Of a DNA stretch of 61,053 nucleotides, positions 2,360-60,600 are shown piece after piece; position 1 is the stretch's first letter, and the number at the start of each line of letters is the position of its first letter. The stretch lies in the IMG/VR virus record IMGVR_UViG_3300027793_000007; one strand, 5' to 3'. A program made the translations under genes and the position numbers. Source of the stretch: a virus. The notes under the pieces were generated by a model. It was not told where the DNA came from, searched no databases, and worked only from the letters and a program-made list of their open reading frames with translations.

Positions 2360-2378
2360 GACGCTACGCTAAGGGGAG
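2360..2378 (+). promoter_or_regulatory. phage promoter-like motif, copy 1
   Basis: gacgctacgctaaggggag, 19 nt upstream of ATG 2398. Confidence 0.6.
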
Positions 2379-2397
2379 TAAAGAATGAGGGAAGTTT

Positions 2398-2730
2398 ATG
2401 AATGACCAAGAGCCAGATGCACCAGATTACTACTACGACTGGATTAACACAAGCAATTTAACTTGGAAACAAAGGCTACAAGTTCGCGTAATGATTGGCT
2501 ATTTGGTAGCAAGAGGCTTTTCTGAATGGGGTACAGCCGATAGTCCAGAGTCAGAAGGCTCTTTTCTGTTGGTCTTATCTCGCCAAGCTAGATTTACCAT
2601 CGACTTTGCCGAATGGCCTACTAAGCTAGTCTTAAACCTTGGAGAAGGCTTGGGGACTGACTTTACAGTTGTCGTAGATGCTAATTCCATCCATGACAGC
2701 TACGAGTCTTTGAAAAAGCTACTTCCTTAA
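2398..2730 (+). CDS. hypothetical protein (110 aa)
   Basis: Track ORF with a motif copy and GGGAAG upstream. Confidence 0.6.
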   Translation: MNDQEPDAPDYYYDWINTSNLTWKQRLQVRVMIGYLVARGFSEWGTADSPESEGSFLLVLSRQARFTIDFAEWPTKLVLNLGEGLGTDFTVVVDANSIHDSYESLKKLLP

Positions 2731-2941
2731 ATGGGTCGTTTTATGGGACATGGGTCGTTTTGTTTTAAGAGAAACGACCCATGTCTATCCACCACAGAGC
2801 TTGGGTTTAAGGGTGATTGGGTCGGATGGGTCGGGGGTCTATACCCTTTTAGGATAGGGGTGAAATATGCTTTCGTTTCACTTTGTGTTTTGACCCTTTT
2901 TATATAAAGAATAAAGAATATATAACGACCCAACGACCCAT
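2731..2941. repeat. iteron cluster (ATGGGTCGTT-type, about 7 copies in both orientations); candidate replication origin
   Basis: Direct atgggtcgtttt at 2731 and 2750. Inverted aaacgacccat at 2772, giving a 12-bp perfect hairpin with 2749-2760. tgggtcgga/tgggtcggg at 2817-2836. aacgacccaacgacccat at 2924-2941. Confidence 0.6.
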
Positions 2942-2947
2942 TTTGCT

Positions 2948-5038
2948 CTAATCCTTACTCCATATACGTCTGTCGCGATAAACAGCTAATTTACATGGCT
3001 TTGAAGAATAACCCATGTTAGTCAGAATTGCCTTGACTTCAGCCGTGAAACCTTTTGGTATGGCTTTTCCTTGCCATATCTGAGCATTAAGAGCAGGGAT
3101 GAACACAAAGTCATAGCCCGTAGTATGCATGAACGTCTCAACAGCATTTCTTACCACTTCAAAGTAATCAGACTGGCAAATGTACTGCTGATTATCCCTA
3201 GTGGTGGTAGCAATTAGTCTATCGAAAGAACCTAGAGATGGGTTGGTTAATGCTTCTTGATAAGCGCTTGCCCAAATAGCATCAACATCAATTCTTAGCT
3301 GAGGAATGTTAACTCTAGTGCCAGTTGGAATCTTGCAGACCATCCATCTACGCTGTGAATAGGTATCAGAAAGAAACTGATAGTCTGTGGTAGTACCACC
3401 TATAACAAATGGGGTAGGTTTTTGTTCATCTCTCGATACATACATTACATTGTAATTAACGCATGGTTTAGTAATGAACTCGTTGATTTTGTCCCTGTTT
3501 TCTGCCTTGAGAACTAGAACCATTTCATCCCAAAAACATAGCCAGCTCTTAGTAAGTGCAGACTCGACTCCACTGTGGAAGCTAGACATAGAGTATATCC
3601 AAGACTTGAAGAATGCACTAAATGTAGCAGTCTTGCCACAGCCTGAGTTGCCAATTAATACTAGGCAAAAGGGGAAGTCAGTAAACTCTTCTTCATTGAT
3701 TTGCCTAAGCACTGCTGCCTTCAGAAACAAAGAGAAATACTCGTCCTCTTGCTCAGTCCCACCCCAGTATTTACTAGCAATATTAGTGTGGGAAATCCCT
3801 TGTTTAACCTTGCAAGACTGCAGGTATTCAATAATAGGATTGTAACTATTCTCTAGGGCTACATGGTCAACAATTAAAGGTGCATCCCATCTAGGCATAG
3901 AAATATTAGTCTGAGTTCTAACCTTGGCAATGATTTGGTTAATAGTCTTTTTCTCACCTTTGAACTCATGCCTATTGAGAAGCTTGTTGTATCTGATAGA
4001 GCCTTTAGCCCATTCAGTTAAGGCGTTGACAGCATTGCTAAATGGGTTGTCAATAACTTCAGTAGGATCGTTGTCTAGATGATCCCATGTACCACTAGAG
4101 CTAGGTAGATACTTAGCATTAGTAGAGCGCCAGCCACAGTCATAAGCCCATCTAAAGATAGATTTGTAGGTATAGCCACCTTGATAGCCTTCACCTTGCC
4201 ATTGTGACCATCTATAGGCAAAGTTACATCTAATAGACTTAGGTGACTGCTCAGACCATCTAACCCAATCATCAAAGAGTGATTCAGATGTAGCTTTAAG
4301 AGCCATTCCCACCTTGTGCCACCCATCCTCATCGTCAAGGTACTGAGGTGAGTTAATAGCCATTAATGCTGACCTAACTTCATCTAACAACTCACTCTCA
4401 GACTTAGTTGTTTTGACCTTAGACGGCTTAGTTTTAGTTGTAGGAGTAATAGGTTGGTAGTGCCGTTCTAGCGGCTTAGCAATTTCGTCTAGTGTGTAGG
4501 TATAGCCAGTGTGTTTAGCAATGGTAGATACATAGCCCGTCTTAGGGTGGACACCACCAGCTAGCCTCATTAGCCGAGCAGGGTTAACTAGTTTTGTATC
4601 AGCTTTAAGTACATTAACTAGCATTGTCTGAACTAATACCCATTGTTCAGGGTCTACAGGTTTAGATAGGACATAGTAGGAATGAACAGATTTACCACCC
4701 GTGTCTACTTGGATGGTAGGTTCTGGCAGTCCATACTTTTGCCACATAGACATAGACTCTTCCTTAGAAATGTCATCATGCTCATAGAACAGGGCATAGC
4801 TTTGGGTAACATCTTTGTCCTTATAAGCGCGGTTAGGACAATAAAATATATTGAGTTGCTTAGCCTCTTGCTGACTAATCCCTAGGTAATCAACATCAGG
4901 ATACACAAAAGATAGCTTTCTAGATGTCTTGCCTTTGCCACCATCTATAGGTAGGCAATTAAGAAGCACCGTATCCCCTTCAACAAAACCCAACGCACTC
5001 AAGTGAGTTAACGCATCTTGTACAGTAGTTTTATCCAT
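2948..5038 (-). CDS. bifunctional AEP primase-polymerase / SF3 (D5/P4-type) helicase
   Basis: AEP motifs FYEHDD, GGKSVHSYYVL and ARLMRLAGGVHPKTG. PriCT-like DDEDGWHKVGMALK. Walker A GNSGCGKT and Walker B CFWDE. Confidence 0.9.
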   Translation of the reverse strand: MDKTTVQDALTHLSALGFVEGDTVLLNCLPIDGGKGKTSRKLSFVYPDVDYLGISQQEAKQLNIFYCPNRAYKDKDVTQSYALFYEHDDISKEESMSMWQKYGLPEPTIQVDTGGKSVHSYYVLSKPVDPEQWVLVQTMLVNVLKADTKLVNPARLMRLAGGVHPKTGYVSTIAKHTGYTYTLDEIAKPLERHYQPITPTTKTKPSKVKTTKSESELLDEVRSALMAINSPQYLDDEDGWHKVGMALKATSESLFDDWVRWSEQSPKSIRCNFAYRWSQWQGEGYQGGYTYKSIFRWAYDCGWRSTNAKYLPSSSGTWDHLDNDPTEVIDNPFSNAVNALTEWAKGSIRYNKLLNRHEFKGEKKTINQIIAKVRTQTNISMPRWDAPLIVDHVALENSYNPIIEYLQSCKVKQGISHTNIASKYWGGTEQEDEYFSLFLKAAVLRQINEEEFTDFPFCLVLIGNSGCGKTATFSAFFKSWIYSMSSFHSGVESALTKSWLCFWDEMVLVLKAENRDKINEFITKPCVNYNVMYVSRDEQKPTPFVIGGTTTDYQFLSDTYSQRRWMVCKIPTGTRVNIPQLRIDVDAIWASAYQEALTNPSLGSFDRLIATTTRDNQQYICQSDYFEVVRNAVETFMHTTGYDFVFIPALNAQIWQGKAIPKGFTAEVKAILTNMGYSSKPCKLAVYRDRRIWSKD

Positions 5039-5183
5039 TGTCCATAGCCTCGACTCTAGACATTAAATCTTCAGCTACTTTGCCTTGTGTAGTCTTAACC
5101 TCGGCATTGTACTTATCAATAATCAAACGCACTACAGGCACAAGTGGCTCTGGGATTCGTATAGCAGGATTTCCCTTGCTCAT
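5031..5183 (-). CDS. hypothetical small protein (50 aa)
   Basis: Track ORF trimmed to internal ATG (MSKGNPAIRIP). Overlaps the primase start by 8 nt. Confidence 0.45.
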   Translation of the reverse strand: MSKGNPAIRIPEPLVPVVRLIIDKYNAEVKTTQGKVAEDLMSRVEAMDNG

Positions 5184-5223
5184 ATCTACCTCTGTTACAA
5201 TACTGTTGCACCAGTGTAGCACA

Positions 5224-5244
5224 GACGCTACGCTCTCAGGTTAA
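5224..5244 (+). promoter_or_regulatory. phage promoter-like motif, copy 2 (degenerate 3' half)
   Basis: gacgctacgctctcaggttaa, 73 nt upstream of ATG 5318. Confidence 0.45.
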
Positions 5245-5283
5245 TGGAGAATACTTAACTTTTAAGTGGGCTGATTGACCGTG

Positions 5284-5319
5284 ATAGGATTAGGTTTATT
5301 AACAACGACCTAATCCTAT
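5284..5319 (+). promoter_or_regulatory. perfect 12-bp inverted repeat that includes the start codon of the 760-aa gene
   Basis: ataggattaggt (5284-5295) pairs with acctaatcctat (5308-5319). The last two bases are the AT of ATG 5318. Confidence 0.6.
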
Positions 5320-7600
5320 GTATCGTTACTTCCTTAACACCTATCGCAACTCTATACCCACTGGACTACCAGCTAGATTGGTTGACCCTACTCTAAGGAC
5401 TATAGGTGAGCAACCACAGTTCTTGCGGATAGGTGAAGGCGACCATCCTACAAATGAGTTACTAAGGAAGGTCTATCAGCAACCTAGTAAGGATGTAGTT
5501 AGAACTAAGGTGTTGGGTGAGATATACCCGCCTACTGACACAGACCCATACCTTCGTAGACCAGATAACATTGCTGCTATTAGGACTGCATCAGAACAAT
5601 TAGGTATTCCATTAGAACGGACTGGTTTAAGGATAGCTACAAATCCTTTTAGGTTAGAGGGTGAAGTATCTGATGTGAATCTACTTGCACAGATAACTAA
5701 TAGGGCTGCTGGTAATCTACAGCGCAGTGGCAAGCCTGTACTTGCTAACGCCTTAACTCGCAAAGCTAAATTCTTTAGCCAACCTACAAGCTACAGCGAA
5801 ATAGCTGTAGATGGCACTGAAGGGGTTGAAGCTATTCTTGAGGCTTATAAAAAAGCTGAACCTAGAAGGACTGCCAACTCTCAGGGGAACAGACCTATCC
5901 TCATGCAAGCAGATGGGCTAGACCCTAACATTGGCATTCCTAGTGGTAGTCCTGAAAATATACCTTGGGATAACATTGAGGGCATGAGAGGTCATAATGC
6001 TTATAAACCAGCAGATGAACTTAAGCGTCCTAGATTTATTGACCTAGGCACGGGCATCTACACAAGGTCAGGTGAACGCATCAATGCAGAGCAGAAGAAC
6101 CTACTTGATATGGGATTGGCTGACCTTGAGGATAGAAGTTTTATATTGCGTGACCCTGCTAGTGTTAATCAAGTACCTGTTAGAGCAATGGCTTCAGCAC
6201 TACCTCCAAACTATTATTCTCAGAGAGATAGGAATATCCCTGCCACCCCAGAATCAATTCCCCCTACTAGAATGACTAGGGATATTAACAATACTCCTAT
6301 CTATTACAGTGAATTGCCAGCTAACTACTATGGTGTTAAGAGAGATATCCCTGATGAAGACAGGGCTAAGTATACTCTTCAGCCAGTCAAAGGTAATTGG
6401 GCTACAGGGGTAACAGTTATTGATGAAACCAAGGCATTAACAGATGAGATTGGTAGCATCATTGGCTATAGACCTACTGCTGAAGAGTATCGTAAATCCA
6501 AGAGACTTGGCTTTGAAGTACTTGGCGTAGGGCGGCAAGATACATCAACTCTTAATATCCCAGAGAAGGTTAGCTACTCTCTAGAAGATGGTGTAACTAC
6601 AAAGAATCTATGGGGGACAGAAGTAGAAATTCCTACAGGAAGACAAGCAATCAATACCTATGTTGAGCCTAGTCAGACTAAAGAGATAACTGCTGTTACT
6701 CCTGTTAGAAGAATGTCCGATAGTATGTCAGACCGTATTCTTGCTGACCCTAATTACCTTTTACATCTTAAGCAGAATGTTGAACCATTCAAGTCTGCTA
6801 GTACACCTCAATACTACCTAGACCAGAGCAAAGACTTTGTTGGCCCTATTCGTGTTGCTAAGAACAATACCTACGGAGTTACGCAAGGGAAGACACCTTG
6901 GAGAGAATACTACTCAGATCCATTTGTGTATGAAGATAAAGGATTAGATGGTGAAGTATCTAGACTAGTCAAAGCTGTCAATGAAGCACCAGCACAGCTA
7001 GAGAATGCTTTATCTGATCAAGCTTTAGCTAACCGTAAGGTCTTTGATATTGAACAAAAGATTGCGTATGTACCTTCTTTAAATAGGATAGCTAAAGGAT
7101 CAAAGAAAGGCGATCAATCCATAACAGCTAGTCCTGAAGCTATTATAGATTGGGTTGAAGCTCGTGAAACTATTAGACCTATTGTTGCCCCATTGCAAAA
7201 AGAAAGGCGTATGGCTGAGGTTGAAGCAGCTAAAGCACAAGATAGGATAGCAGAACTTAGAGCAGCACAAGAGCTAATGGGTGTTGAGTATATGGTTAAG
7301 CCTAAGCTATGGGGTGAGGACGTGCTAAGCGGCTATCAACAAGGCAGCAGAACTATTGGGGGCATTCGTGATTCTAATGAAACGCCTATCAACAACAAAT
7401 TTACAGAAGCTATTGATGATGAGATAAAAGTATCTAGGATTGCGTCTCAACCTACTATGCCTATTGAGATGCAAAGGAAAGCTATTAGTGTTAAACCTAA
7501 TGCAGTACAAGCATGGAGAGAAGCTATTCAACAAGAAGCTTTAGATAACCGCAGAGACTATGACATAGCATCACTCTTTGGTTTCTCAGGTAATTACTAA
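5318..7600 (+). CDS. hypothetical large protein (760 aa)
   Basis: Long uninterrupted track ORF. No motif recognised. Confidence 0.7.
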   Translation: MYRYFLNTYRNSIPTGLPARLVDPTLRTIGEQPQFLRIGEGDHPTNELLRKVYQQPSKDVVRTKVLGEIYPPTDTDPYLRRPDNIAAIRTASEQLGIPLERTGLRIATNPFRLEGEVSDVNLLAQITNRAAGNLQRSGKPVLANALTRKAKFFSQPTSYSEIAVDGTEGVEAILEAYKKAEPRRTANSQGNRPILMQADGLDPNIGIPSGSPENIPWDNIEGMRGHNAYKPADELKRPRFIDLGTGIYTRSGERINAEQKNLLDMGLADLEDRSFILRDPASVNQVPVRAMASALPPNYYSQRDRNIPATPESIPPTRMTRDINNTPIYYSELPANYYGVKRDIPDEDRAKYTLQPVKGNWATGVTVIDETKALTDEIGSIIGYRPTAEEYRKSKRLGFEVLGVGRQDTSTLNIPEKVSYSLEDGVTTKNLWGTEVEIPTGRQAINTYVEPSQTKEITAVTPVRRMSDSMSDRILADPNYLLHLKQNVEPFKSASTPQYYLDQSKDFVGPIRVAKNNTYGVTQGKTPWREYYSDPFVYEDKGLDGEVSRLVKAVNEAPAQLENALSDQALANRKVFDIEQKIAYVPSLNRIAKGSKKGDQSITASPEAIIDWVEARETIRPIVAPLQKERRMAEVEAAKAQDRIAELRAAQELMGVEYMVKPKLWGEDVLSGYQQGSRTIGGIRDSNETPINNKFTEAIDDEIKVSRIASQPTMPIEMQRKAISVKPNAVQAWREAIQQEALDNRRDYDIASLFGFSGNY

Positions 7601-8344: not shown

Positions 8345-8347
8345 GGT

Positions 8348-8366
8348 AAGCTACGCGATTAGATAG
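8348..8366 (+). promoter_or_regulatory. phage promoter-like motif, copy 4 (variant)
   Basis: aagctacgcgattagatag, 15 nt upstream of ATG 8382. Confidence 0.5.
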
Positions 8367-9244: not shown

Positions 9245-9265
9245 AGCGCTACGCTAGGGAGTGAT
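9245..9265 (+). promoter_or_regulatory. phage promoter-like motif, copy 7
   Basis: agcgctacgctagggagtgat. No ORF lies directly downstream; copy 8 follows. Confidence 0.45.
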
Positions 9266-9305: not shown

Positions 9306-9325
9306 CATCCTACGGGGTGGGATAG
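9306..9325 (+). promoter_or_regulatory. phage promoter-like motif, copy 8 (UACG-hairpin variant)
   Basis: catcctacggggtgggatag, with left arm cctatctcatcc forming a roughly 12-bp hairpin closed by UACG. Lies 26 nt upstream of ATG 9352. Confidence 0.55.
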
Positions 9326-10192: not shown

Positions 10193-10209
10193 CCCAATAG
10201 CGTAGCGTC
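10193..10209 (-). promoter_or_regulatory. the only reverse-oriented copy of the promoter-like motif
   Basis: cccaatagcgtagcgtc is the reverse complement of gacgctacgctattggg. It points into the 3' end of a forward gene. Confidence 0.4.
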
Positions 10210-11397: not shown

Positions 11398-11417
11398 AGC
11401 GCTACGCTAGGGGATAG
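11398..11417 (+). promoter_or_regulatory. phage promoter-like motif, copy 10 (consensus)
   Basis: agcgctacgctaggggatag, 19 nt upstream of ATG 11437. Upstream ctatcctc is complementary to ggggatag. Confidence 0.65.
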
Positions 11418-11838: not shown

Positions 11839-11858
11839 GTCCCTACGGGGTGGGATAA
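11839..11858 (+). promoter_or_regulatory. phage promoter-like motif, copy 11 (UACG variant)
   Basis: gtccctacggggtgggataa, 8 nt upstream of ATG 11867. Confidence 0.5.
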
Positions 11859-12689: not shown

Positions 12690-12711
12690 GACGCTACGCT
12701 ACTAGGGGAAG
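12690..12711 (+). promoter_or_regulatory. phage promoter-like motif, copy 12, facing ORF-free sequence
   Basis: gacgctacgctactaggggaag, with left arm tcccct upstream. No ORF lies downstream before copy 13. Confidence 0.5.
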
Positions 12712-12938: not shown

Positions 12939-12976
12939 GGATTCAAAGCCTCTAAAACCCTTTTAGGGATTGAAAC
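12939..12976 (+). CRISPR. solitary CRISPR-type repeat unit (38 nt)
   Basis: ggattcaaagcctctaaaacccttttagggattgaaac. Identical over 41 nt to 16190-16230. Ends in the ATTGAAAC 5'-handle sequence typical of Cas6-type crRNAs. No second repeat occurs downstream. Confidence 0.6.
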
Positions 12977-13032
12977 TCAATTCAGCAGAGGACAGATTAG
13001 AGTTCTCCCTTTCTCGTAACATCATCTCCCAA

Positions 13033-15612: not shown

Positions 15613-15634
15613 GACGCTACGCTACTGGGGGACG
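15613..15634 (+). promoter_or_regulatory. phage promoter-like motif, copy 17
   Basis: gacgctacgctactgggggacg, with left arm ctatcctc upstream. Faces the 1.28-kb ORF-free region. Confidence 0.5.
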
Positions 15635-16059: not shown

Positions 16060-16186
16060 AGATGAGTGGCGGAATTGGTAAACGCATAGGCTGGAACTTA
16101 ATATGTGGAATTAACCCCGTCCTCTGCTATGGCTGTATTGCCAGCTATCAGAGTGTTCCTTACAGGTTCAAATCCTGTCTCATCTA
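16060..16186 (+). tRNA. non-canonical tRNA-like element (127 nt) with an oversized anticodon-side domain
   Basis: 7/7 acceptor pairing agatgag/ctcatct. Leu-type D arm tg-gcggaattggtaaacgc. Canonical T arm acagg-ttcaaat-cctgt. The middle is about 40 nt too long. It holds the helix atag(g)ctgg/ccagctat and one anticodon-like hairpin ttaat-AUGUGGA-attaa (16098-16114, would read GUG). Confidence 0.5.
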
Positions 16187-16189: not shown

Positions 16190-16272
16190 GGATTCAAAGC
16201 CTCTAAAACCCTTTTAGGGATTGAAACTCATCTATAAGGTCTAGGTGGATAACCCCTATTAGGGATTGAAAC
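16190..16272 (+). CRISPR. mini CRISPR-like array: full 38-nt repeat, 23-nt spacer-like segment, degenerate 22-nt repeat 3' half
   Basis: Repeat 16190-16227 is identical to 12939-12976. aacccctattagggattgaaac (16251-16272) matches the repeat's 3' end at 20/22. The array begins 3 nt after the tRNA-like 3' end. Confidence 0.6.
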
Positions 16273-16811: not shown

Positions 16812-16870
16812 TGCTATAATCTATTCATTACTAATGACTCTTCGGAGTAGAGAGAACTGAATAGATTATG
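16812..16870 (+). promoter_or_regulatory. host-type extended -10 (TGcTATAAT) plus 9-bp inverted repeat and a UUCG hairpin before ATG 16868
   Basis: tgctataat at 16812-16820. atctattca (16819-16827) pairs with tgaatagat (16858-16866). Inner hairpin actc-ttcg-gagt. No phage motif copy here. Confidence 0.45.
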
Positions 16871-17791
16871 GCTACAACTAAGCCTAAGAAGAAAGCTGAG
16901 ACTAAACCTAAGCTTACCAACAGTGCTAGATTTTACCCTACTAAGTGGGGATTCAATGCGCCTAGCGTTACTACTATCCTAAGTGGAACTGAGTCTAGAG
17001 CAGCACAGACAAGGCTAGAGAACTGGTCTGAGAAGTGGCTAGCTGACCCAGAGAATAAGGGTAAGACAGAGCCAAAGGACAGAGGTTCATTAATAGATGA
17101 GCGCCTATCTAAGTACTTTGCCTTAGACCCAGAGTATCGCGTGCTTCCCACCACATGGGGATTACCAGAGGATGTAAAGCCATTCATGGATGCGATCCTT
17201 AAACCTATGAAGGCTACGGGTAAGTCTATCCTAGCTCAGATTACTGATGTGATGTGGAGTCAAGGGCTATTGGATTGTGTGGACATTCCTAGGAGTGAGC
17301 GTCAGTTCTACCAACCTGACATTAAGATTGCTAGGGAGCAAGAGTTCATTTCATCTAAGACTTATCGCTATGCTGGTGTCCCTGACTTTGTGGGGAATTA
17401 CACCAATGCTAAAGGTGAAACTAAACTATCCCTTATCTCTCTCAAGACTTCTGACAAGAACTATTCAAAGGTTAGCCCTGATTGGAAGGCGTTCAATGCT
17501 AGGCTAGCCGAGTGTCGTGCTCAAGGTATTGAGTTTGTACCACCCGAAGGATGGAGAGAGAACTATGGAGCTAACATGAAGTTCCGTAGAGCAGGGATGC
17601 AAGAGAGTGCTTATGACTTTGCTCTACAAGAGTCTTTAGGTATCTATGTTGAACAGTACATTGTTTTGGTAGTCACAACTAAAGGTATTCAAACTTTACC
17701 TATCGCTGGTATGGAGAAGGATTGGTTTAATCGGATGTGGCTAGAGAAGGTAGCTAAGTTCTATGAGATGTATCCACAACTAGGAGTTTAA
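16868..17791 (+). CDS. hypothetical protein; possible PD-(D/E)XK-type exonuclease
   Basis: Track ORF. GVPDFVG...LSLISLKTS loosely fits the PD...(D/E)xK pattern. The functional call is weak. Confidence 0.55.
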   Translation: MATTKPKKKAETKPKLTNSARFYPTKWGFNAPSVTTILSGTESRAAQTRLENWSEKWLADPENKGKTEPKDRGSLIDERLSKYFALDPEYRVLPTTWGLPEDVKPFMDAILKPMKATGKSILAQITDVMWSQGLLDCVDIPRSERQFYQPDIKIAREQEFISSKTYRYAGVPDFVGNYTNAKGETKLSLISLKTSDKNYSKVSPDWKAFNARLAECRAQGIEFVPPEGWRENYGANMKFRRAGMQESAYDFALQESLGIYVEQYIVLVVTTKGIQTLPIAGMEKDWFNRMWLEKVAKFYEMYPQLGV

Positions 17792-17792
17792 G

Positions 17793-18002
17793 ATGAAGAA
17801 GAAATACATTCTAAGACCAGGGTATGTGACAAGCATTAATGATGGTCAACTTCATTGGATAACAGCAGAGAAGTTAATGGCTTTGTATGGAGTAAGTAAA
17901 GATGAATGCTATACAATGGACTCTATTAGAGGTGTTGATGTAACAGGGCTAATTAACCTGCGCGCAGACCCGCTAGGCAACTACTCTCTCGCTAAACCAT
18001 AA
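17793..18002 (+). CDS. hypothetical protein (69 aa)
   Basis: Track ORF, tightly packed. Confidence 0.55.
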   Translation: MKKKYILRPGYVTSINDGQLHWITAEKLMALYGVSKDECYTMDSIRGVDVTGLINLRADPLGNYSLAKP

Positions 18003-18271
18003 TGACTAAGGGTGATATCGTACTATTCAAACCAGCTAAGACTGCCACTAAGGGTAGTGATGGATTAGCACGCATGGTCAAACAGTACGATTCGCCTTGT
18101 GTTGTGTATCAAATCATAGGCTATTGGGCATACCTTTATAGACTAATGGATGGTGGTATTCATGTAGCACCGCGAAGCGAACACTGGGCTTGTATTGATA
18201 TAGATTTGTCTGTGTATGCAGATAAGTTAGATATGGTAAGTCATTTATTAGAGGTTGGAAGTAATGAGTAA
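18002..18271 (+). CDS. hypothetical protein (89 aa)
   Basis: Track ORF. Its last 32 codons are duplicated as a remnant at 18476-18571. Confidence 0.55.
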   Translation: MTKGDIVLFKPAKTATKGSDGLARMVKQYDSPCVVYQIIGYWAYLYRLMDGGIHVAPRSEHWACIDIDLSVYADKLDMVSHLLEVGSNE

Positions 18272-18467
18272 AAGAATGTCGATTAGCCTTGATAATCAAG
18301 CAGAGGCTATGCTTAAGAAAATGGCTGAAAATATGGGAATAACTCAGAATGAAGTTATAAATAAAGCTATTAAGGTAGAACACTTTGTACAAGAAGCTAT
18401 TGCAGGAGGCGCTACTGTAGTTGTTAAGTATAAAGATGGGCAGACAACACAGATACTATTTAGATGA
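18255..18467 (+). CDS. ribbon-helix-helix (CopG/Arc-like) protein
   Basis: MSKRMSISLDNQAEAMLKKMAENMGITQNEVINKAIKVE fits the strand-helix-helix RHH pattern. Confidence 0.6.
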   Translation: MEVMSKRMSISLDNQAEAMLKKMAENMGITQNEVINKAIKVEHFVQEAIAGGATVVVKYKDGQTTQILFR

Positions 18468-18475
18468 CTCGCTGA

Positions 18476-54418: not shown

Positions 54419-54450
54419 AGGTGATAACTTTACATCAAGAGTCTACCACA

Positions 54451-54470
54451 CAGCGCCTCGGAAGAGGTGA
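54451..54470 (+). repeat. R element copy 1 (cagcgcctcggaagaggtga)
   Basis: Identical 20-mer at 54701. Contains the cctc-ggaa-gagg hairpin. Confidence 0.7.
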
Positions 54471-54522
54471 ATGTTTTAGTATCAGCGCTATTATCCTAGC
54501 AACGGTCATTGTATCCTCACAC

Positions 54523-54542
54523 CAGTGCCTCGAAAGAGGTGA
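54523..54542 (+). repeat. R element copy 2 (cagtgcctcgaaagaggtga)
   Basis: 18/20 match to R1. A half copy (cagcgcccc) sits at 54574-54582. Confidence 0.6.
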
Positions 54543-54700
54543 GTATTTGCAGATACTACGTCTATACCAACAACAGCGCCCCTTAATACCTGAAATACTC
54601 TGGAATAATGGGGCGATATCACTATATTAGACCCTATCCCCCACACTTCAGCGCATCGTAGATGCAAGAGTTTTGAGATAGACTTATCTACTGCGCTCAA

Positions 54701-54720
54701 CAGCGCCTCGGAAGAGGTGA
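54701..54720 (+). repeat. R element copy 3 (cagcgcctcggaagaggtga)
   Basis: Identical to 54451-54470. Confidence 0.7.
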
Positions 54721-54767
54721 GATTCTTTGGATAGGCTCTATTTACTCTTTCTTCCATTCCATTTGAA

Positions 54768-54806
54768 CCACGACGGGGAGACCCCGTGACACCCCCTTAC
54801 TTGATT
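54768..54806 (+). repeat. hairpin element H1
   Basis: ccacgacggggagaccccgtgacacccccttacttgatt, nearly identical to H3. Confidence 0.7.
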
Positions 54807-54834
54807 TTATACTTTCGCTTAAACCAAATTACTT

Positions 54835-54913
54835 CTGTCTTATTCATTGTCTTCTCTAATCTCTGTTCTATTCATTATCTTCTCTAATTACTGTAGTTCT
54901 ATCCATTATAACT
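54835..54913 (+). repeat. tandem repeat of about 27 bp, 2.5 copies
   Basis: ctgtcttattcattgtcttctctaat / ctctgttctattcattatcttctctaat / tactgtagttctatccattataact. Confidence 0.65.
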
Positions 54914-55047
54914 TACCTACGGCTCTGATATAGCTTCCTTTTTGGCTGTACTGGCTTTATATTTTTACTAAATGGAAGTACTTTATACAGGTTTTTGTTT
55001 ATCTGTTATACTCTACCCCACAACAACCTAAACCGCAGAACAAAAAA

Positions 55048-55080
55048 GGTACGGGGAGACTCCGTGACACTCCCTAAGAC
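55048..55080 (+). repeat. hairpin element H2
   Basis: ggtacggggagactccgtgacactccctaagac. Confidence 0.6.
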
Positions 55081-55132
55081 CAGCGCGTCTTACGCAAGTG
55101 TAGTCTTTCGTTCCACGCGCTGATGCTCATCA

Positions 55133-55170
55133 CACCACGGGGAGACCCCGTGACACCCCCTTACTTGATT
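55133..55170 (+). repeat. hairpin element H3
   Basis: caccacggggagaccccgtgacacccccttacttgatt; 7-bp GC stem with a 3-nt AGA loop. Confidence 0.7.
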
Positions 55171-55354
55171 ATACGTTTCCGTATGATACTCATTTGTACT
55201 AGTTGAGGGTGCGGTTGTTACATTGGCACATACATCGGCACATACATCGCACTACTTTGTAGCACATACACACTGCACGCAGAGGCTCTAGCACACCAGT
55301 TAGCTCTCACCTATCTACACAGTTGCCGACACATAGTGACTTGCATTCCATGCT

Positions 55355-55514
55355 CTGAGTTACTAGCACAGCACAGGTATATCGCCCTCAACAGTTGTAT
55401 CGTGTGTGAATTCCTTACCTTTCAGGCGCTGAGATGCTAGCACAGCACGGGTATCTGCTCCTCAACAGATATGTCTTCTACGAATTTCCTTGCCTAAAGG
55501 CGCTGGGATACTAG
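55355..55514 (+). repeat. 74-bp tandem repeat, 2.2 copies (about 70 percent identity)
   Basis: Units start ctgagttactagcacagcacagg (55355), ctgagatgctagcacagcacggg (55429) and ctgggatactag (55503). Confidence 0.65.
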
Positions 55515-55624
55515 TTATAGCCTAGAGCAGGGGGCGTTGCGGGGGGCGGCTAGCCATCCCGCACAGTGACTTAACTTTTTTACCTTCGGTCTGTGGGAGG
55601 CATACTTTATTTGGGATTAATCCT

Positions 55625-55951
55625 ATGTCTACTTTATTCTCTCTTGTTGGTTTCTGCGTTCAGTTGGTTGTTATCTTCTCCTCTATTGCACTCATCATTG
55701 ATACGCATGAGTATCTCTGCTCTCAAGACACTGCCGATGAGTCTGACGCTACGCTACCTATGACCACAAGCCACTGTGCTAAGTCAATGACAACTCCCGC
55801 TATTGTGACTACCATCAGTGAGTTTGAGCTTTACCCCGATATTAACTCTATGACTGTTAAGCAACTCAAGTCCTATGCCAAGGCTTCTGGCTTTACAGGA
55901 TACAGCGCACTCCGCAAGGCTGAGTTAATCAGCTTACTCTCAGAATTCTAG
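55625..55951 (+). CDS. membrane-anchored protein with a Rho-N/SAP-like C-terminal domain
   Basis: N-terminal TM segment LVGFCVQLVVIFSSIALII. The C-terminus MTVKQLKSYAKASGFTGYSALRKAELISLL fits the Rho_N/SAP pattern. Confidence 0.55.
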   Translation: MSTLFSLVGFCVQLVVIFSSIALIIDTHEYLCSQDTADESDATLPMTTSHCAKSMTTPAIVTTISEFELYPDINSMTVKQLKSYAKASGFTGYSALRKAELISLLSEF

Positions 55952-56046
55952 CCTATCTCGACAGCCACTTGTGATAAGCATGAGTGGCTTAACTCTCTTA
56001 ACTTCGTTTTGTTAATCATTGTATTTTATTAATTTGGAGATTAACC

Positions 56047-56592
56047 ATGTCTATTACTGCTAAGTCTAACAAGTCTGACATTTATGCTGCATACCTCGCC
56101 TCTCAAGAACGTATTGCACAGTTGGAGCGCAATGCTGAGGATGACCGCCGCAGAATTGGCGTGATGATGTATGAGCAGAATGTAGCTGCTCAACGCATTG
56201 TCGAATTAGAAGCTGAGGTTGAGCGCCTTAGCGATGAGCTTGCTGAAGCCAATGATGATGCTGACGCTCTTGACGATGCTCGTGATGTCATTAAGACGCA
56301 AGCCGCACGTATTAAATTGCTGTCTCAGAAGGTTGCGGCTCAGTCTAAGACAGCACCTCCTGCACAATCCAAGAAGCCAGCGCTTAAGCCAGAAGTGCCT
56401 GCGTCAGAACTTGAGTCCCAGCCCGTAGTTCAAGTCACCGATACTGACCGCCGCATCTGGTCAGCATTCAAAGCTCTCCCCCGCGAGAAGCGTCAGTCCT
56501 ATTACGACTTTGCCCGTGCAACCGTAGGTCATCTCGGTATCCACAATATCGTAGCTGTGCGCGAAGCTTACCTAGCTCAGCAAGCAGCGTAA
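56047..56592 (+). CDS. hypothetical coiled-coil protein (181 aa)
   Basis: Track ORF; GGAGA RBS. Confidence 0.6.
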   Translation: MSITAKSNKSDIYAAYLASQERIAQLERNAEDDRRRIGVMMYEQNVAAQRIVELEAEVERLSDELAEANDDADALDDARDVIKTQAARIKLLSQKVAAQSKTAPPAQSKKPALKPEVPASELESQPVVQVTDTDRRIWSAFKALPREKRQSYYDFARATVGHLGIHNIVAVREAYLAQQAA

Positions 56593-56600
56593 CCACCACA

Positions 56601-56649
56601 GCATCAGATGTCTAGCTCCTTAGTTAGATGTCTGATGCATTTTTTTTTC
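56601..56649 (+). terminator. rho-independent terminator
   Basis: 14-bp stem gcatcagatgtcta/tagatgtctgatgc (2 G-U pairs) followed by a T9 run. Confidence 0.8.
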
Positions 56650-56658
56650 TTATTCGCA

Positions 56659-56747
56659 GTCATGACCCTATGCAAATCTTGCATTATACACCTTCGTATA
56701 ATCAGGCTGTCAATTATACGCTTTCGTATAATCCTTTGCGTCATGAC
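56659..56747. promoter_or_regulatory. symmetric operator/promoter array: gtcatgac, 2 x (attatac-N6-gtataat), gtcatgac
   Basis: Palindromes at 56659-56666 and 56740-56747 bracket two 20-bp palindromes at 56683-56702 and 56713-56732. Each 20-bp palindrome ends in TATAAT. Confidence 0.6.
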
Positions 56748-56852
56748 GATAATGATGACGATGATGAAGGTTAAGTTGCTTAGTTCTAGGTAACTTAACT
56801 TTCTTAGCTACGCTTTGATGATTGTGTAAATTGTTTAGTTTTGGAGATTGCT

Positions 56853-57077
56853 ATGTATTCATATTGGAATCAATTTCGTTCAGTTCAATACTCACCTGAG
56901 TTTATTCAAGAACTTGAGCGTAGAGCTAATGCACCTCAAGTTTACATCAATACTACCACGATGAAGAAGATTGTAGTTTCTGCTAATCAGTTAGCTTTGC
57001 GTAAAGAGAGTCGTGACTTTAGGAACTACATTCCTTACGCCACGAGATTTTCTTCTTCTTCCTATATCGGTGATTAA
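56853..57077 (+). CDS. hypothetical protein (74 aa)
   Basis: Track ORF trimmed to the ATG 6 nt after GGAG. Confidence 0.55.
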   Translation: MYSYWNQFRSVQYSPEFIQELERRANAPQVYINTTTMKKIVVSANQLALRKESRDFRNYIPYATRFSSSSYIGD

Positions 57078-57142
57078 TCCCGCAGTCCTAAGCATGACTC
57101 TAAACTGCTTCCCTCATAGACCCTGCGTTACCCGAAAGGTAT

Positions 57143-57164: not shown

Positions 57165-57204
57165 TTCTGATGTTTAGTTCATATCTAGTAAGGAGATATT
57201 GGTG

Positions 57205-60054
57205 ATGAATGTAGCCAAGTACGAGTTTATTGACGGGCAGTTTAAGCGCACGATGGAAGTTCCATTGCGAATGACTCTCTTAGAGCAAGTGTGCGTCAAC
57301 TTGGGGGTTTCGCCAACCTCTATTGTCATTCTTGAGTTGGGCGGTATCGCGCCCAAAGAGCTAAGGAAGGACGGCGATAAAGGCAAGGAACTTCTTGCTC
57401 AACAGATGGAAGTCCTTGCTTCTGCAAGTCAATCTCTAGCTGACAATGGTATTACCTTGGATGGTGTGCATTACTCACTTCTCCAAGCAACTAGTGGTGC
57501 TAAGACCTCTGCTTCTATGTTGCTGTCGAGTGACATTCGTCTTATTGAATACTTTAGAGGTAATGACCAACACAAAGGTTTGATGTGTCATCCCAGCAAG
57601 TCATACGAGCAGCTAATGATGGGATACCAGCTTCCACTCACTCCCAACAAGGCTGTTGTTACAGCCAAGTTACGGGTTCTCATTGTGGATGATGAGTTTG
57701 ATAACTATCAGGTACACGCTGGTTCTATCAGCCAGTGTGTTGGCGCAAACCCTGATGGCAGCCCCAAGTGGGAGGTTATCTCGTCTTGGCAGGATGAGAC
57801 TATTCGCCATTATGATACCCGTCAGTCCGTTGCTGGTGTGGGCGACTGTCACATCAAAATCTCTCAAGGCTTGGCTAACTATCTCAGCACTAAAGTCACG
57901 GGCTTCAACAGCACGACTGGACAACCCATGACATTCCTTGACAGCGCTAATCAAGGCTGTCAATTCAGGCTAATGGTGGGTGAATGCCCTGCAATGGCTA
58001 AGGGAACATTCGTGGTAGAGCCTAGCCTTGCAGAGGATTACCACATGGTAATCCCTAAATCATGCTTTAAGTTGGGCTATCCTAACTTGTTAACTCTTGA
58101 TGGTGTATTGACTATCACGCTAGGAGCAACCATGCAGGCTGTGGATGGCAAGGCAGCATTTGGCTCTCAGTTTGCTCGCTCCATGAGTAAGTCAGTGCTG
58201 GAAGTTCGCAAACCTTACATTGCAGAACAGATGGCTCGCCTTAATACTGCTGGTTCTTCTATTCAAGAAGCGGCTAAGTTCTTCAATGCAGAAGCCAACT
58301 CTAAGGTTATCTGGTTTGAGGAGAACGAAGATGGTGAAGAAGTGGAGCAGTCCCGTGACGACTGGTTCTACAAGGCTATGCACTCCATAGCAACTAGTGA
58401 GCATCTAAGTTGGGCGCTCAAAGACCCAACCATCATTCAACGCATCCTCTCTAGCATTAGCAAGAGGAAGATGAAGTTAGCTCTAGGCATGGGCTTTGAG
58501 GGTAGAGTTCGTACTGCATTACCTGATGATACCCTTCCACTCCATGTAATCAGTGCATCTGATGCAAGAGTTCTTAAGTGGAAGGATGGGAAGTGGTTCA
58601 ACGGCAAGAAGGCACTACCACATGGTGCTGTTGGTATGGTTGAGTCTAATGGAACTCAACACATTGGCTTGTTAGTGGTTAGGGGCAAAGCGCCTATCAT
58701 GAACCATGCCGAGCAATGCTTGGGCGTTCTTGTCCATCGTCCTGATGGTATTGGATCGGGTTGCGAGTTTATGAGCCATCAATCAGCATCGGTCTGCACT
58801 ATGGACTTTGATGGTGATAGGAATAGTACTCTAGTCTGGAAGGATGAAGTTGGCTATCTCGAAGCTATCAATCACTTTGTCAAGATTCAGAGACATTGCC
58901 CAATTACTCCTGTTATCAAGGAGAAGTCCAAGGTTAATCGTGGATGGGGTGAGTTAACTCGCTTAGTCTATGAAAGCGCCTTCGAGATGGGTTGTAGTGG
59001 CATTACCTCTATGTATTGCCAAGCGACAGAAGCTAGTGGTGTTAAGGGATTCAACTCTTGGTTGGAGTCTATTGCGACATTGACTGGTGCTACTCAACTA
59101 TACCTTGACTGTCAGAAGTATGCACCTCAGAACCCTGATGAGTTGAAGTCTATCATTGATGGTGCTATGGAGTACTTTCAAGCATGGCAGACTGACCAAC
59201 GCTCTAGTGATTTAAGGTCTATGCCTTATATCCATCGTGGGCTTAACACATGGAAGATGGCTGGGTTTTGTGACAATGCTAAACCCAAGCATGATGTTGG
59301 TACTATTGCTGCTTGCATCAACTATGTCAATGGATTGCATGAAGTGCCAGCGTTGTTAGATGGTATGAAGCCTCTAACTCACCTTCGTGGTATCTGGGGT
59401 GATTACTCAGCCCATGATAAGCAAGTGGCTATCGACTTTAAGGCTTCACTTAGAGCTTTTGATGCACTATGCAAGGAAGGTGATGCTGATACTAAGAAGG
59501 TATCGGCTCTCATTGACGATGCTAGAGTGCGTTGTGAGTCATTCACCGATGCTCAGTTCAGTGCGTTCTGGGATTTGTCCTATAACAAAGACTGTCTCAT
59601 TGAGGTTGGGCAAGACAAGAAAGAGTACATTCCCACAGCTAACAAGCCTTGGATGCTGTTCACACAGCGCATTCTTGAGAACACTCCTGAGTTGTTGCTT
59701 AAGAAAGAGACTGTGTTATTTAAGCATGGTGGTAAATCCCCTCACGCTATTGATGCAGTAACTCGTACTCAACTGTTGGAGAAACTCACTAAGGAGTCTT
59801 TTAAGACAGTGTGTGAGGTATCTCCTGAGTTCGTAGTCTTCCATGAGAAGAACAAGACTCTTGAGATGTTTCCAGTCATCAGTGTCAAGCGTGGCATTGT
59901 GATTGGTTACGTTGGTACTCATGTAGTGCCAGATACCTATGAGGTCGAACTATCTGCTATCCGTAAGCAGAAGATTGACAAGCCAACTGGACTTACCTAT
60001 ATGGAAGTCTATGAGTCTGGCTTTATGATGCGTATCATCGACATTGACTTTTAA
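57205..60054 (+). CDS. single-subunit two-double-psi-beta-barrel RNA polymerase (YonO / RdRP-like)
   Basis: VVRGKAPIMNHAEQCLGVLV...MSHQSASVCTMDFDGDRNSTLVW parallels beta-prime LLNRAPTLHRLGIQAF...NADFDGDQMAVHV. QFRLMVGECPAMAKGTFVVEP parallels the Lys-bearing barrel. GVGDCHIKISQGLANYL resembles the RdRP DGxGxIS..LA motif. ATG lies 8 nt after AAGGAGA. Confidence 0.8.
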   Translation: MNVAKYEFIDGQFKRTMEVPLRMTLLEQVCVNLGVSPTSIVILELGGIAPKELRKDGDKGKELLAQQMEVLASASQSLADNGITLDGVHYSLLQATSGAKTSASMLLSSDIRLIEYFRGNDQHKGLMCHPSKSYEQLMMGYQLPLTPNKAVVTAKLRVLIVDDEFDNYQVHAGSISQCVGANPDGSPKWEVISSWQDETIRHYDTRQSVAGVGDCHIKISQGLANYLSTKVTGFNSTTGQPMTFLDSANQGCQFRLMVGECPAMAKGTFVVEPSLAEDYHMVIPKSCFKLGYPNLLTLDGVLTITLGATMQAVDGKAAFGSQFARSMSKSVLEVRKPYIAEQMARLNTAGSSIQEAAKFFNAEANSKVIWFEENEDGEEVEQSRDDWFYKAMHSIATSEHLSWALKDPTIIQRILSSISKRKMKLALGMGFEGRVRTALPDDTLPLHVISASDARVLKWKDGKWFNGKKALPHGAVGMVESNGTQHIGLLVVRGKAPIMNHAEQCLGVLVHRPDGIGSGCEFMSHQSASVCTMDFDGDRNSTLVWKDEVGYLEAINHFVKIQRHCPITPVIKEKSKVNRGWGELTRLVYESAFEMGCSGITSMYCQATEASGVKGFNSWLESIATLTGATQLYLDCQKYAPQNPDELKSIIDGAMEYFQAWQTDQRSSDLRSMPYIHRGLNTWKMAGFCDNAKPKHDVGTIAACINYVNGLHEVPALLDGMKPLTHLRGIWGDYSAHDKQVAIDFKASLRAFDALCKEGDADTKKVSALIDDARVRCESFTDAQFSAFWDLSYNKDCLIEVGQDKKEYIPTANKPWMLFTQRILENTPELLLKKETVLFKHGGKSPHAIDAVTRTQLLEKLTKESFKTVCEVSPEFVVFHEKNKTLEMFPVISVKRGIVIGYVGTHVVPDTYEVELSAIRKQKIDKPTGLTYMEVYESGFMMRIIDIDF

Positions 60055-60064
60055 GAGCGACTCG

Positions 60065-60110
60065 GAAGATGTAAGTATTTAGGGAGTTATCTTTGAGTAC
60101 TTACATCTTC
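60065..60110 (+). terminator. 13-bp perfect hairpin after the RNAP gene (no strong T run)
   Basis: gaagatgtaagta / tacttacatcttc, then tctt. Confidence 0.4.
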
Positions 60111-60190
60111 TCTTATCTACTAGTTTGTCCCTTGATGGACTAGGCTTTGACGCTTCGCTATTTGATAATAATATTTGTTTGGAGTTAAAT

Positions 60191-60325
60191 ATGTGCTTCC
60201 AGTTTAACAGAGAACAGTGGCTCTCTGATTGTTGGGAAATGGCTAGATATCAAGACTTAATGGAGTATGAAGCTCAGGAAGTTTTGAATGGTGCTGACCC
60301 GTTAGACTTCCATAGACATTGCTAG
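60191..60325 (+). CDS. hypothetical small protein (44 aa)
   Basis: Track ORF trimmed to the ATG after GGAG. Confidence 0.4.
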   Translation: MCFQFNREQWLSDCWEMARYQDLMEYEAQEVLNGADPLDFHRHC

Positions 60326-60328
60326 ATA

Positions 60329-60377
60329 GGCTGTATAGGTTAGGGGGTTATCCTCTAGTCTATACAGCCTTTTTTTT
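60329..60377 (+). terminator. rho-independent terminator
   Basis: ggctgtatag / ctatacagcc 10-bp stem followed by T8. Confidence 0.8.
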
Positions 60378-60403
60378 GCTTTGTCCTCTACGTTCTAAGT
60401 TAG

Positions 60404-60423
60404 GACGCTACGCTAGTAAGTAA
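60404..60423 (+). promoter_or_regulatory. phage promoter-like motif, copy 34 (first of a tandem pair)
   Basis: gacgctacgctagtaagtaa, part of a duplicated ~47-bp unit tctacgtt..aag.taggacgctacgcta. Confidence 0.5.
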
Positions 60424-60451
60424 TAGCCTATCTGTCTACGTTTGAAGGTAG

Positions 60452-60471
60452 GACGCTACGCTATTAGATAA
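60452..60471 (+). promoter_or_regulatory. phage promoter-like motif, copy 35 (second of the tandem pair)
   Basis: gacgctacgctattagataa. No ORF for about 150 nt downstream. Confidence 0.55.
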
Positions 60472-60581
60472 CTCAAGGGTTTTGATGCTTTTACCTGAGT
60501 TCTATGACAAAGCATCCTAAAGTTCTCAGCGCTCACTTGAGTAGTGCTACCGTTTGTGTTAACAACATAATTATCCTTTTG

Positions 60582-60600
60582 CTGCTACGCAATGGGATAA
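60582..60600 (+). promoter_or_regulatory. phage promoter-like motif, copy 36 (variant)
   Basis: ctgctacgcaatgggataa, 28 nt upstream of ATG 60629. Confidence 0.5.

Follow-up and report, generated by a model that had tools for sequence, protein, structure and literature searches.

Which polymerase reads a short signal that is repeated about 40 times on one strand of an uncultivated virus genome? The window considered here is the whole stretch of 61,053 nucleotides (nt) of IMG/VR record IMGVR_UViG_3300027793_000007, in which the 19-base motif (A/G)CGCTACGCTA-N0-3-GGGGATAR occurs in about 40 same-strand copies ahead of genes. The phage encodes a candidate two-barrel RNA polymerase of 951 aa with a single subunit, and it is likely that this enzyme uses the motif as its promoter. 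A sequence-only reading of the window had already proposed a promoter regulon of a YonO-like RNA polymerase; the regulon is supported by the fold of the enzyme, by co-occurrence of enzyme and motif and by placement of the copies, while the term YonO-like holds at superfamily level only. Phage two-barrel polymerases with promoters of their own are already known as a kind. Unusual in the present case are the many sharply defined promoters, an enzyme whose sequence is an orphan and the composites in which a promoter lies within a hairpin.

Both strands were scanned with an iterated weight matrix of 26 columns, and sites were counted after peak merging. At a threshold of at least 12 bits, 36 sites were detected on the plus strand and one on the minus strand (unmerged raw positions 35 versus 1), with 0.4 matches expected from Markov simulations; at 10 bits or more, the numbers were 39 and 3. 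The core ACGCTACGCTA alone, with at most one mismatch, was found 28 times on the plus strand and once on the minus strand (10198-10208), in comparison to 0.65 in shuffled sequences. The binomial p of the strand split was 1e-9. The 36 forward copies and the single reverse copy previously counted by eye were thus recovered by the formal scan, which also upheld the strand bias against the simulated expectation. A k-mer search of both strands revealed no other family near the copy number or strand bias of the motif and no comparable motif specific for the minus strand.

In its prevailing form the motif consists of gACGCTACGCTA, a gap of 0-3 nt, a G run and ATA(G/A). Conservation extends over each of the 11 positions of the core, the nucleus of which, CTACG (positions 4-8), varies in a single copy only (CTTCG at 60150). 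Minor forms are the G-class taGCGCTACGCTA, xTGCTACGC(A/G)A-TTAGATAA and CCCTACGG(G/T). In addition, a weak CCTACGG-type subclass described before was found with all of its four members, each on the plus strand (9307, 11840, 22391 and 37805). The copies are given below, with bits as weight-matrix scores.

2361-2379, + strand: copy ACGCTACGCTAaggggagt; 23.7 bits; 26 nt to ATG 2398
5225-5243, + strand: copy 2 nt from minus-strand start 5222 and 82 nt ahead of the 760-aa open reading frame (ORF); 19.4 bits
7602-7620, + strand: copy; 29.4 bits; 26 nt to ATG 7639
8348-8366, + strand: variant copy AAGCTACGCGAttagatag; 20.3 bits
8563-8581, + strand: G-class copy in a palindromic hairpin (-18.8 kcal/mol, fold z = -5.3, covariation); 28.8 bits
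8804-8822, + strand: G-class copy; its 11-bp hairpin precedes TTTATT (weight matrix, fold, covariation)
9246-9264, + strand: G-class copy in a hairpin, -15.5 kcal/mol (weight matrix, fold, covariation)
9307-9325, + strand: subclass copy ATCCTACGGGGtgggatag in an 11-bp hairpin with UACG loop and T-rich tail; 10.0 bits
10190-10208, - strand: the sole strong reverse copy, beside a plus-strand terminator-like hairpin; 29.5 bits
10289-10307, + strand: copy TAGCTACGCTAggggatag in a hairpin, -14.5 kcal/mol (weight matrix, fold)
11399-11417, + strand: G-class copy in a hairpin, -18.3 kcal/mol; 30.6 bits; 27 nt to ATG 11437
11840-11858, + strand: subclass copy TCCCTACGGGGtgggataa; 16 nt to ATG 11867
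12691-12709, + strand: copy heading a non-coding stretch; 26.4 bits
12920-12938, + strand: weak variant CTACTACGTTAggggatag, directly 5' of a CRISPR-repeat-like unit; 11.6 bits
13034-13052, + strand: G-class copy within the non-coding stretch; 24.3 bits
13142-13160, + strand: variant GTGCTACGCAAagggatg; 18.0 bits
14111-14129, + strand: variant ATGCTACGCGAttagataa; 21.2 bits
14968-14986, + strand: G-class copy; 28.1 bits; 35 nt to ATG 15014
15614-15632, + strand: copy heading a 1.25-kb non-coding region; 27.1 bits
15667-15685, + strand: half-core copy CATCTACGCTAggggatag in a hairpin, -22.3 kcal/mol; 19.5 bits
20517-20535, + strand: copy 0 nt from minus-strand start 20516 (weight matrix); 29 nt to ATG 20557
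20825-20843, + strand: copy over the last codons of the upstream plus-strand gene; 27.7 bits
21188-21206, + strand: copy; 26.1 bits; 12 nt to ATG 21211
22391-22409, + strand: subclass copy CTCCTACGGGGatggatag in a hairpin, -17.7 kcal/mol (sequence, fold)
23363-23381, + strand: variant ATGCTACGCAAttagataa ahead of the HTH gene at 23403 (Pfam HTH_3); 23.5 bits
26041-26059, + strand: island copy overlapping minus-strand start 26042; 31.0 bits
28669-28687, + strand: island copy, 2 nt from a minus-strand start; 30.2 bits
29707-29725, + strand: island copy, 3 nt from a minus-strand start; 32.8 bits
31591-31609, + strand: island copy, 9 nt from a minus-strand start, heading the operon 31631-33265; 31.6 bits
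35105-35123, + strand: island copy; 26.2 bits
37805-37823, + strand: subclass island copy TCCCTACGGTAagggatga; 12.0 bits
39427-39445, + strand: variant copy of doubtful function, antisense in the minus-strand gene 38630-40735 (701-aa virion protein); 16.5 bits
40771-40789, + strand: island copy; 24.7 bits
43389-43407, + strand: island copy, 6 nt from the terminase start codon; 26.8 bits
52599-52617, + strand: island copy, 8 nt from a minus-strand start, syntenic in relatives with lineage-specific forms (alignment); 30.2 bits
55746-55764, + strand: core-only copy (core 55746-55756) without G box, itself conserved at the nucleotide level in relatives, inside a 108-aa gene; 14.7 bits
57144-57162, + strand: copy 5' of the polymerase gene, kept in relatives; 25.4 bits
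60150-60168, + strand: copy ACGCTTCGCTAtttgataa; 23.4 bits
60405-60423, + strand: copy 3' of the polymerase gene; 26.0 bits
60453-60471, + strand: copy conserved along with its leader in relatives; 30.5 bits
60582-60600, + strand: variant CTGCTACGCAAtgggataa in a hairpin; 20.8 bits

As had been stated before, nearly all copies are intergenic (30 of 36 fully so, in a genome with an intergenic share of 18%; p = 3e-17). If the distance is taken from the core end to the first ATG opening an ORF of at least 30 codons, 24 of 39 copies lie 22-40 nt ahead of the ATG, with a mode of 26. These values correspond to the earlier spacing of 14-30 nt when the 8-nt G box is subtracted; the narrower band of 14-21 nt, to which at least 20 cases had been assigned, contains about 17. 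Between motif and ATG, a Shine-Dalgarno (SD)-like sequence is present in 14 of the 28 motif-proximal genes, which argues that those mRNAs begin at the motif or close by. Where plus- and minus-strand genes diverge, the core is separated by only -2 to 9 nt from the minus-strand start codon at eight junctions (5222, 20516, 26042, 28666, 29703, 31581, 43382 and 52590), a closeness which had also been noticed, and no space is left there for another upstream promoter. Within the late block, nine of ten forward islands start with a copy, in accordance with the former claim for islands having a left intergenic gap; the exception at 33719 has a gap of just 11 nt. Copies head operons, and translationally coupled, overlapping or abutting downstream genes carry none, even in the long operon 31631-33265. 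Furthermore, four copies (12691, 12920, 13034 and 13142) occur within one 600-nt non-coding gap, and two (15614 and 15667) head a 1.25-kb non-coding gap with a tRNA-like element. Such copies ahead of non-coding RNAs speak against a translation signal. The single minus-strand copy is followed by no minus-strand ORF of at least 60 aa, as expected from the claim that no reverse-strand gene possesses the motif in its own orientation. Taken together, intergenic placement, operon heads, non-coding leaders and the SD data fit a transcription start signal and not a translation signal of each gene.

A part of the copies is structured. About 10-12 copies lie in long palindromes (dG -12 to -22 kcal/mol, z -3 to -5.7), the symmetry axis of which is CTA or TACG inside the core. 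A dG of -10 or below was obtained for 12 of 26 copies behind a co-oriented gene versus 2 of 14 at divergent junctions. Left and right arms with at least six contiguous pairs were found in 15 of 36 copies in comparison to 8.7 +/- 2.2 in permutations. The complementary left arm that had been ascribed to many copies is therefore a trait of this subset and not a general one, and the axis lies within the core and not around it. In a set of 14 different G-class copies, drawn from four genomes, 75% of the cells pair versus 67 +/- 2% in shuffled sets (0 of 500) and 34-46% with the partner slid, and ten G-class pairs show double-sided changes; the sequences were picked by class, and some ascertainment bias is left in these values. 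Compensatory changes of this type in the arms indicate base pairing and not recognition of the arms by a protein. The hairpins are likely to serve in ending or insulating read-through transcripts where the next unit begins, and a T-rich tail, called terminator-like, occurs at only two of them (8804 and 9307).

These hairpins are the main support for the possibility that the motif works in the RNA, on a polycistronic plus-strand mRNA, as a processing, stability or termination hairpin or as a translational operator: strong folds are present, their arms covary, and the two T-rich tails resemble terminators. This explanation is nevertheless very unlikely. Most copies are unstructured, including all but two of those at junctions by the threshold given above, and it is the sequence which is conserved and not the structure. 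At the eight junctions, an upstream plus-strand transcript would have to begin within the divergent gene. The copies ahead of non-coding RNAs and the operon-internal genes devoid of the motif are likewise difficult to reconcile with it.

About a third of the copies, mostly behind co-oriented genes, lie in covarying palindromic hairpins, which fits a promoter that is combined with a terminator; such a combination had been suggested previously and gains support from the arm covariation in the hairpin class. Where a co-oriented gene is located upstream, read-through RNA would fold at these promoters and so end or insulate the upstream transcript. Since most copies have no hairpin, it is not required for recognition. 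In T4-type phages, stem-loops joined to an early promoter (PeSL) are known to border small cassettes of accessory genes, and the promoters of the T7-like N4 virion polymerase contain a short hairpin with a 3-nt loop. The G-class copies, TAGCG-CTA-CGCTA with extended covarying arms, are similar to both, but differ in that the top of their hairpin consists of the promoter core.

Beside these structures, three very long plus-strand hairpins of 17-20 bp were observed (56601-56638, 60065-60110 and 60328-60370), of which one directly follows the stop codon of the polymerase gene and two are followed by T7-T9 runs. These hairpins likely terminate transcription of the early arm.

The candidate for the enzyme reading the motif is encoded as follows.

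57199-60054, + strand: candidate two-barrel single-subunit RNA polymerase, 951 aa, with DFDGD at residues 536-540 (fold, profiles)

Neither as a single sequence nor as a profile did this ORF match Pfam, PHROG or PDB sequences, a tblastn search with the protein against 50,697 phage records gave no match, and among 1.84 billion representative proteins only two full-length clusters were detected with a profile. An AlphaFold model based on 21 homologues (pLDDT 69, pTM 0.67) was compared to the PDB with Foldseek. The matches were RDR2 (7w82, E = 2e-11), QDE-1 (7y7p, 5e-8) and the RNA polymerases of Thermus phages, P32 gp64 and P74 gp62, with 3e-5 (8f72) to 9e-4 (8f5m). The Foldseek probability was 1.00 over 880-1010 columns to 7w82, 7y7p and 8f72, at TM-scores of only about 0.4 and 10% identity. 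Among viral models (BFVD), the top match was a phage protein labelled 'RNA dependent RNA polymerase' (3e-12). The sequence MDFDGDRN is invariant among all phage homologues down to 51% identity. Remote profile relatives carry GGDFDGD, and two of them score 22.5-23.6 bits on the Pfam family RdRP (PF05183; cut-off 23.8). When the family was aligned to one such relative (P0048, GGDFDGDY) with hhalign, the probability was 98.7% and the DFDGD motifs were aligned; this relative is the one with 23.6 bits on Pfam RdRP. Model and profiles together place the 951-aa protein, as a strongly diverged member, in the superfamily of two-barrel polymerases, to which YonO, crAss gp66 and P23-45 gp64 belong. The name YonO-like is justified only at the level of this fold superfamily, and YonO itself was not among the matches.

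Homologues with 40-45% identity, from Pseudanabaena and other cyanobacterial contigs (L007/L008, L021 and L022), possess SFDEG in place of DFDGD. Where neighbours are visible (L007/L008 and L022), these genes lie among ordinary cyanobacterial chromosomal genes and HIP1 repeats. From their sequences, the chromosomal homologues look like inactivated or repurposed copies. The 760-aa ORF behind a motif copy (5318-7600, plus strand), which has 43-84% identity in relatives, was considered as a second polymerase; it matched no family, its AlphaFold model (pLDDT 44) was too poor for a fold search, and the candidate was dropped.

The link between enzyme and motif is provided by the relatives, for which additional loci were obtained from an IMG/VR scan (one), JGI metagenomes (eight) and GTDB (two). 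All contigs with a polymerase of 64-89% identity contain the motif, with 5-15 copies per 10 kb and always on the strand of the polymerase. At 56% identity the motif has drifted (GCTACGCA) to tGCTACGCA-ttGGGAT, including directly 5' of the relative's own polymerase gene. At 51% identity (L006) it has the form CCCTACGGG(G/T)AT, with six copies on the plus strand and four on the minus strand; each of these ten precedes a co-oriented gene, eight of them by no more than about 40 nt and two by a greater distance. At one syntenic divergent junction, that of the copy at 52599, the alignment shows three motif forms swapping while the flanks diverge. No copy was found near the loci of the SFDEG homologues, with 0 copies on 13-24 kb fragments of cyanobacterial chromosomes. 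Synechococcus phage S-EIV1 has no homologue of the polymerase and no motif in its first 50 kb. A 16-nt exact pattern was detected in nine stretches among 2.9 million IMG/VR contigs, and all five with multiple copies belong to relatives of this phage. In the sequences compared, the motif thus appears confined to genomes with the polymerase and to alter with it.

The relative with 51% identity also bears on the assumption that the motif is a DNA site outside transcription, i.e. a sequence polar with respect to replication or packaging, a boundary for recombination of cassettes, or a repressor operator. Strand-exclusive occurrence over the whole genome is reminiscent of polar sequences, small accessory cassettes in the late block are flanked by the motif, and some copies are palindromic. 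In L006, though, the motif occurs on both strands and tracks the orientation of the genes and not the polarity of the genome. In addition, the distance to start codons is fixed, and the compensatory changes in the arms indicate pairing of bases. A role of this kind is very unlikely.

More weight has to be given to the host RNA polymerase as reader of the motif, either with TACGCT as -10 element and GGG as discriminator, or by means of a phage sigma- or MotA-like factor acting on tandem ACGCT pentamers. TACGCT matches TAnnnT, according to sequence and to what is known of sigma-70 the following G run resembles an optimal discriminator, and the placement suits any promoter, including one read by the host. 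This explanation remains unlikely, because the expected T at -7 is replaced in eight copies of the window (G at 8348, 14111, 9307, 11840 and 22391; A at 13142, 23363 and 60582) and also in the form CCCTACGGG of L006, neither a -35 element nor TGn is present, and conservation of 11 of 11 core positions far exceeds what sigma-70 needs. Neither a sigma factor nor an RNA polymerase Pfam domain was detected in the genes called on near-identical or related contigs. The motif follows the phage polymerase across lineages, and the cyanobacterial chromosome fragments mentioned above contain 0 copies.

Some observations weigh against recognition by the phage polymerase. The core does hold TACGCT, which matches the host -10 TAnnnT and is followed by a discriminator-like GGG run. 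The region of the catalytic loop is modelled with low confidence (pLDDT <50 at residues 491-542). Plus-strand units at 16868-19178, 33719 and 55625-57077 have no copy, and late and replication genes are without the motif, unlike the situation in T7 or YonO. Finally, we infer both the start site and the identity of the polymerase that reads the motif.

If the motif is the promoter of the 951-aa polymerase, the enzyme would read the 11-bp upstream box with its nucleus CTACG, and the RNA would start in the G-rich box just past the core, CTA|GGGGATAG, giving leaders of about 22-40 nt. As judged by the placement of the copies, the regulon would comprise the plus-strand early/accessory arm, the forward island gene sets in the late block, several non-coding RNAs and the polymerase gene. 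The copy at the polymerase gene had been reported before; it was found at 57144 with 25.4 bits, is conserved in relatives and would imply positive autoregulation. Upstream of it, a further element was recognized.

57083-57113, + strand: 30-nt block AGTCCTAAGCATGACT(A/C)TAAACTGCTTCCCT with TAAACT (TAnnnT), single copy in the genome (alignment)

This block is located 30 nt 5' of the motif copy and is kept even in the relative with 51% identity, in which the motif is missing at this site. The block may represent a host-type promoter that primes synthesis of the polymerase, or another control site. The first polymerase mRNA would probably be made by the host polymerase at this conserved block, whereupon the phage enzyme would fire its own copy and the remaining regulon.

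The minus-strand genes, i.e. structural genes and the primase-helicase, are presumably read by another polymerase, that of the host, as can be supposed from absences only (no motif, no sigma factor and no second RNA polymerase domain). In eight cases, the reverse complement of the motif is followed at -2 to 9 nt by the start codon of a minus-strand gene, and an SD-like sequence is missing from all eight genes. Their promoters are consequently to be expected inside or beyond the forward units, or the genes are reached by read-through from 54.4-55.6 kb. In the reverse core TAGCGTAGCGT, two hexamers match TAnnnT, and their spacing would allow leaderless minus-strand starts, with TAGCGT as a possible -10 element; as 8 of 10 possible spacings would fit, this compatibility is non-discriminating. 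On the plus strand, the possibility that the motif is a -35-like box of leaderless mRNAs was ruled out for half of the genes by the SD-like sequence between motif and ATG. Scans with sigma-70 and terminator consensus sequences gave no more sites than shuffled sequences and are uninformative on minus-strand promoters.

Between the two divergent arms lies a 1.2-kb non-coding region (54419-55624). It contains three copies of a hairpin ACGGGGAGACCCCGT followed by GTGACA, as well as repeated CGCCTCGGAAGAGGTG hairpins. The first ACGGGGAGACCCCGT copy (54786-54813) is accompanied by the sigma-70-like arrangement GTGACA-N16-TATACT and the third by TATAC at about the same spacing, while the second (55053) has no such hexamer. 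As conserved host promoters, these repeats at 54.8-55.2 kb were rejected; they are confined to the window and the contigs L004/L005 and are a weak lead. The equivalent non-coding region of L006 (7678-8010) harbours a cluster of TCAGCGCCC-ttt-GGGCG hairpins, with exact TCAGCGCCC present seven times on the plus strand and once on the minus strand.

The arrangement proposed here has parallels in well-known systems. Phages of the T7 family have a single-chain polymerase and a promoter of about 20 bp with high information content, which ends in ...TA|GGG and is present in dozens of co-oriented copies. Among T7, T3 and SP6, promoter specificity drifts as the polymerases diverge, and the polymerase gene is first read by the host polymerase. 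The present phage shares all of these traits, the last of them probably. The enzymes differ in fold, that of T7 being right-handed and Pol I-like, while the 951-aa protein is of the two-barrel (DPBB) type. T7 promoters serve the late structural genes, and the motif of this phage would serve the early/accessory arm and island genes.

More closely related in fold are the enzymes of the Thermus phages. The polymerases gp64 and gp96 of P23-45 each have their own promoter motif and make pre-early and early RNA (PMC10770324). Gp64 of P23-45, P74-26 and P32 (gp62) is, like the 951-aa protein, a single-subunit two-barrel phage RNA polymerase with GC-rich promoters of its own, and it was matched directly by Foldseek. 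Later transcript classes of P23-45 are reportedly made by the host polymerase, and the division of labour that we infer here would resemble this. Sequence similarity between the two proteins is undetectable, and gp64 has a length of about 590 aa. The motif of P23-45 is 'less conserved' and lies upstream of seven mapped start sites, in contrast to about 40 highly conserved copies here. Furthermore, the gp64 mRNA is synthesized by a virion polymerase, and none was found in this phage.

YonO of the Bacillus prophage SPbeta is likewise a phage enzyme of the two-barrel type, in which one peptide acts as DNA-dependent RNA polymerase. Genes similar to YonO have been reported in chromosomes of cyanobacteria (PMC5467207), comparable to the SFDEG homologues described above. 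The present phage differs by its approximately 40 sites and the exclusion of late genes, and the likeness to YonO is one of fold. The eukaryotic RNA-dependent RNA polymerases RDR2 (from plants) and QDE-1 (PF05183) are the best structural neighbours and share the DxDGD catalytic loop, and remote relatives of the 951-aa protein touch this family; the low TM-scores and the 10% identity set them apart. Gp66 of the crAss-like phage phi14:2 is a QDE-1-like enzyme that acts as a DNA-dependent phage RNA polymerase; with more than 2000 aa and packaged in the virion, it is unlike the 951-aa protein.

To our knowledge, phages have few single-subunit RNA polymerases of the two-barrel type (YonO, crAss gp66, and gp64 and gp96 of P23-45), their promoter recognition is poorly understood, and the promoter of YonO is not known. 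With about 40 natural promoter variants and graded relatives whose motif drifts, the rules of recognition become directly testable. Because no current profile library recognizes the enzyme, annotation pipelines miss this transcription machinery. The polymerase together with its 19-bp promoter could become an orthogonal expression tool for cyanobacteria. A more far-reaching proposal, which is tentative and may well prove wrong, is that freshwater cyanophages possess a sequence-orphan clade of single-subunit two-barrel polymerases, of which the 951-aa protein is the founding member. The protein would recognize, unaided, a 19-bp duplex promoter (CTACG, G start) that is orthogonal in the style of T7 and native to cyanobacteria, with a third of the promoters in covarying insulating hairpins, and the same promoters would drive CRISPR-repeat decoy RNAs.

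As to the phage itself, an exact terminal repeat of 127 nt (1-127 identical to 60927-61053) shows that the window is a complete circular assembly of 60,926 bp, and the encoded terminase, major head and portal-like proteins identify a tailed phage. The nearest isolate is Synechococcus phage S-EIV1, with a terminase identity of merely 37%, and a search for nearly identical DNA in 50,697 phage records gave 0 matches to the window. Exact copies of its proteins are present in more than 130 blocks of a public assembly index, so that this uncultivated phage has a wide freshwater distribution. Near-identical contigs come from lakes (JGI 3300031963 and 3300008262). In Pseudanabaena genomes, the large ORF has distant homologues on the chromosome, adjoining HIP1 repeats, which points to a cyanobacterium as the host, probably one similar to Pseudanabaena or Synechococcus.

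Finally, some elements were observed in the non-coding stretches. Two identical 36-nt units on the plus strand (12941-12976 and 16192-16227) resemble the Rfam family CRISPR-DR5, each with 31 bits versus a gathering score of 40 and E = 0.05, and a partial third unit (16253-16272, plus strand) ends with TAGGGATTGAAAC. The first unit lies between the weak motif copy at 12920 and a terminator-like hairpin (12988-13007), a layout which is shared by solitary-repeat RNA anti-CRISPRs (PMC10651486). A tRNA-like element at 16060-16186 (plus strand) was called by Rfam with 40 bits and was negative in ARAGORN; it comprises 127 nt with two insertions and is situated within the 1.25-kb non-coding stretch that is headed by two motif copies.

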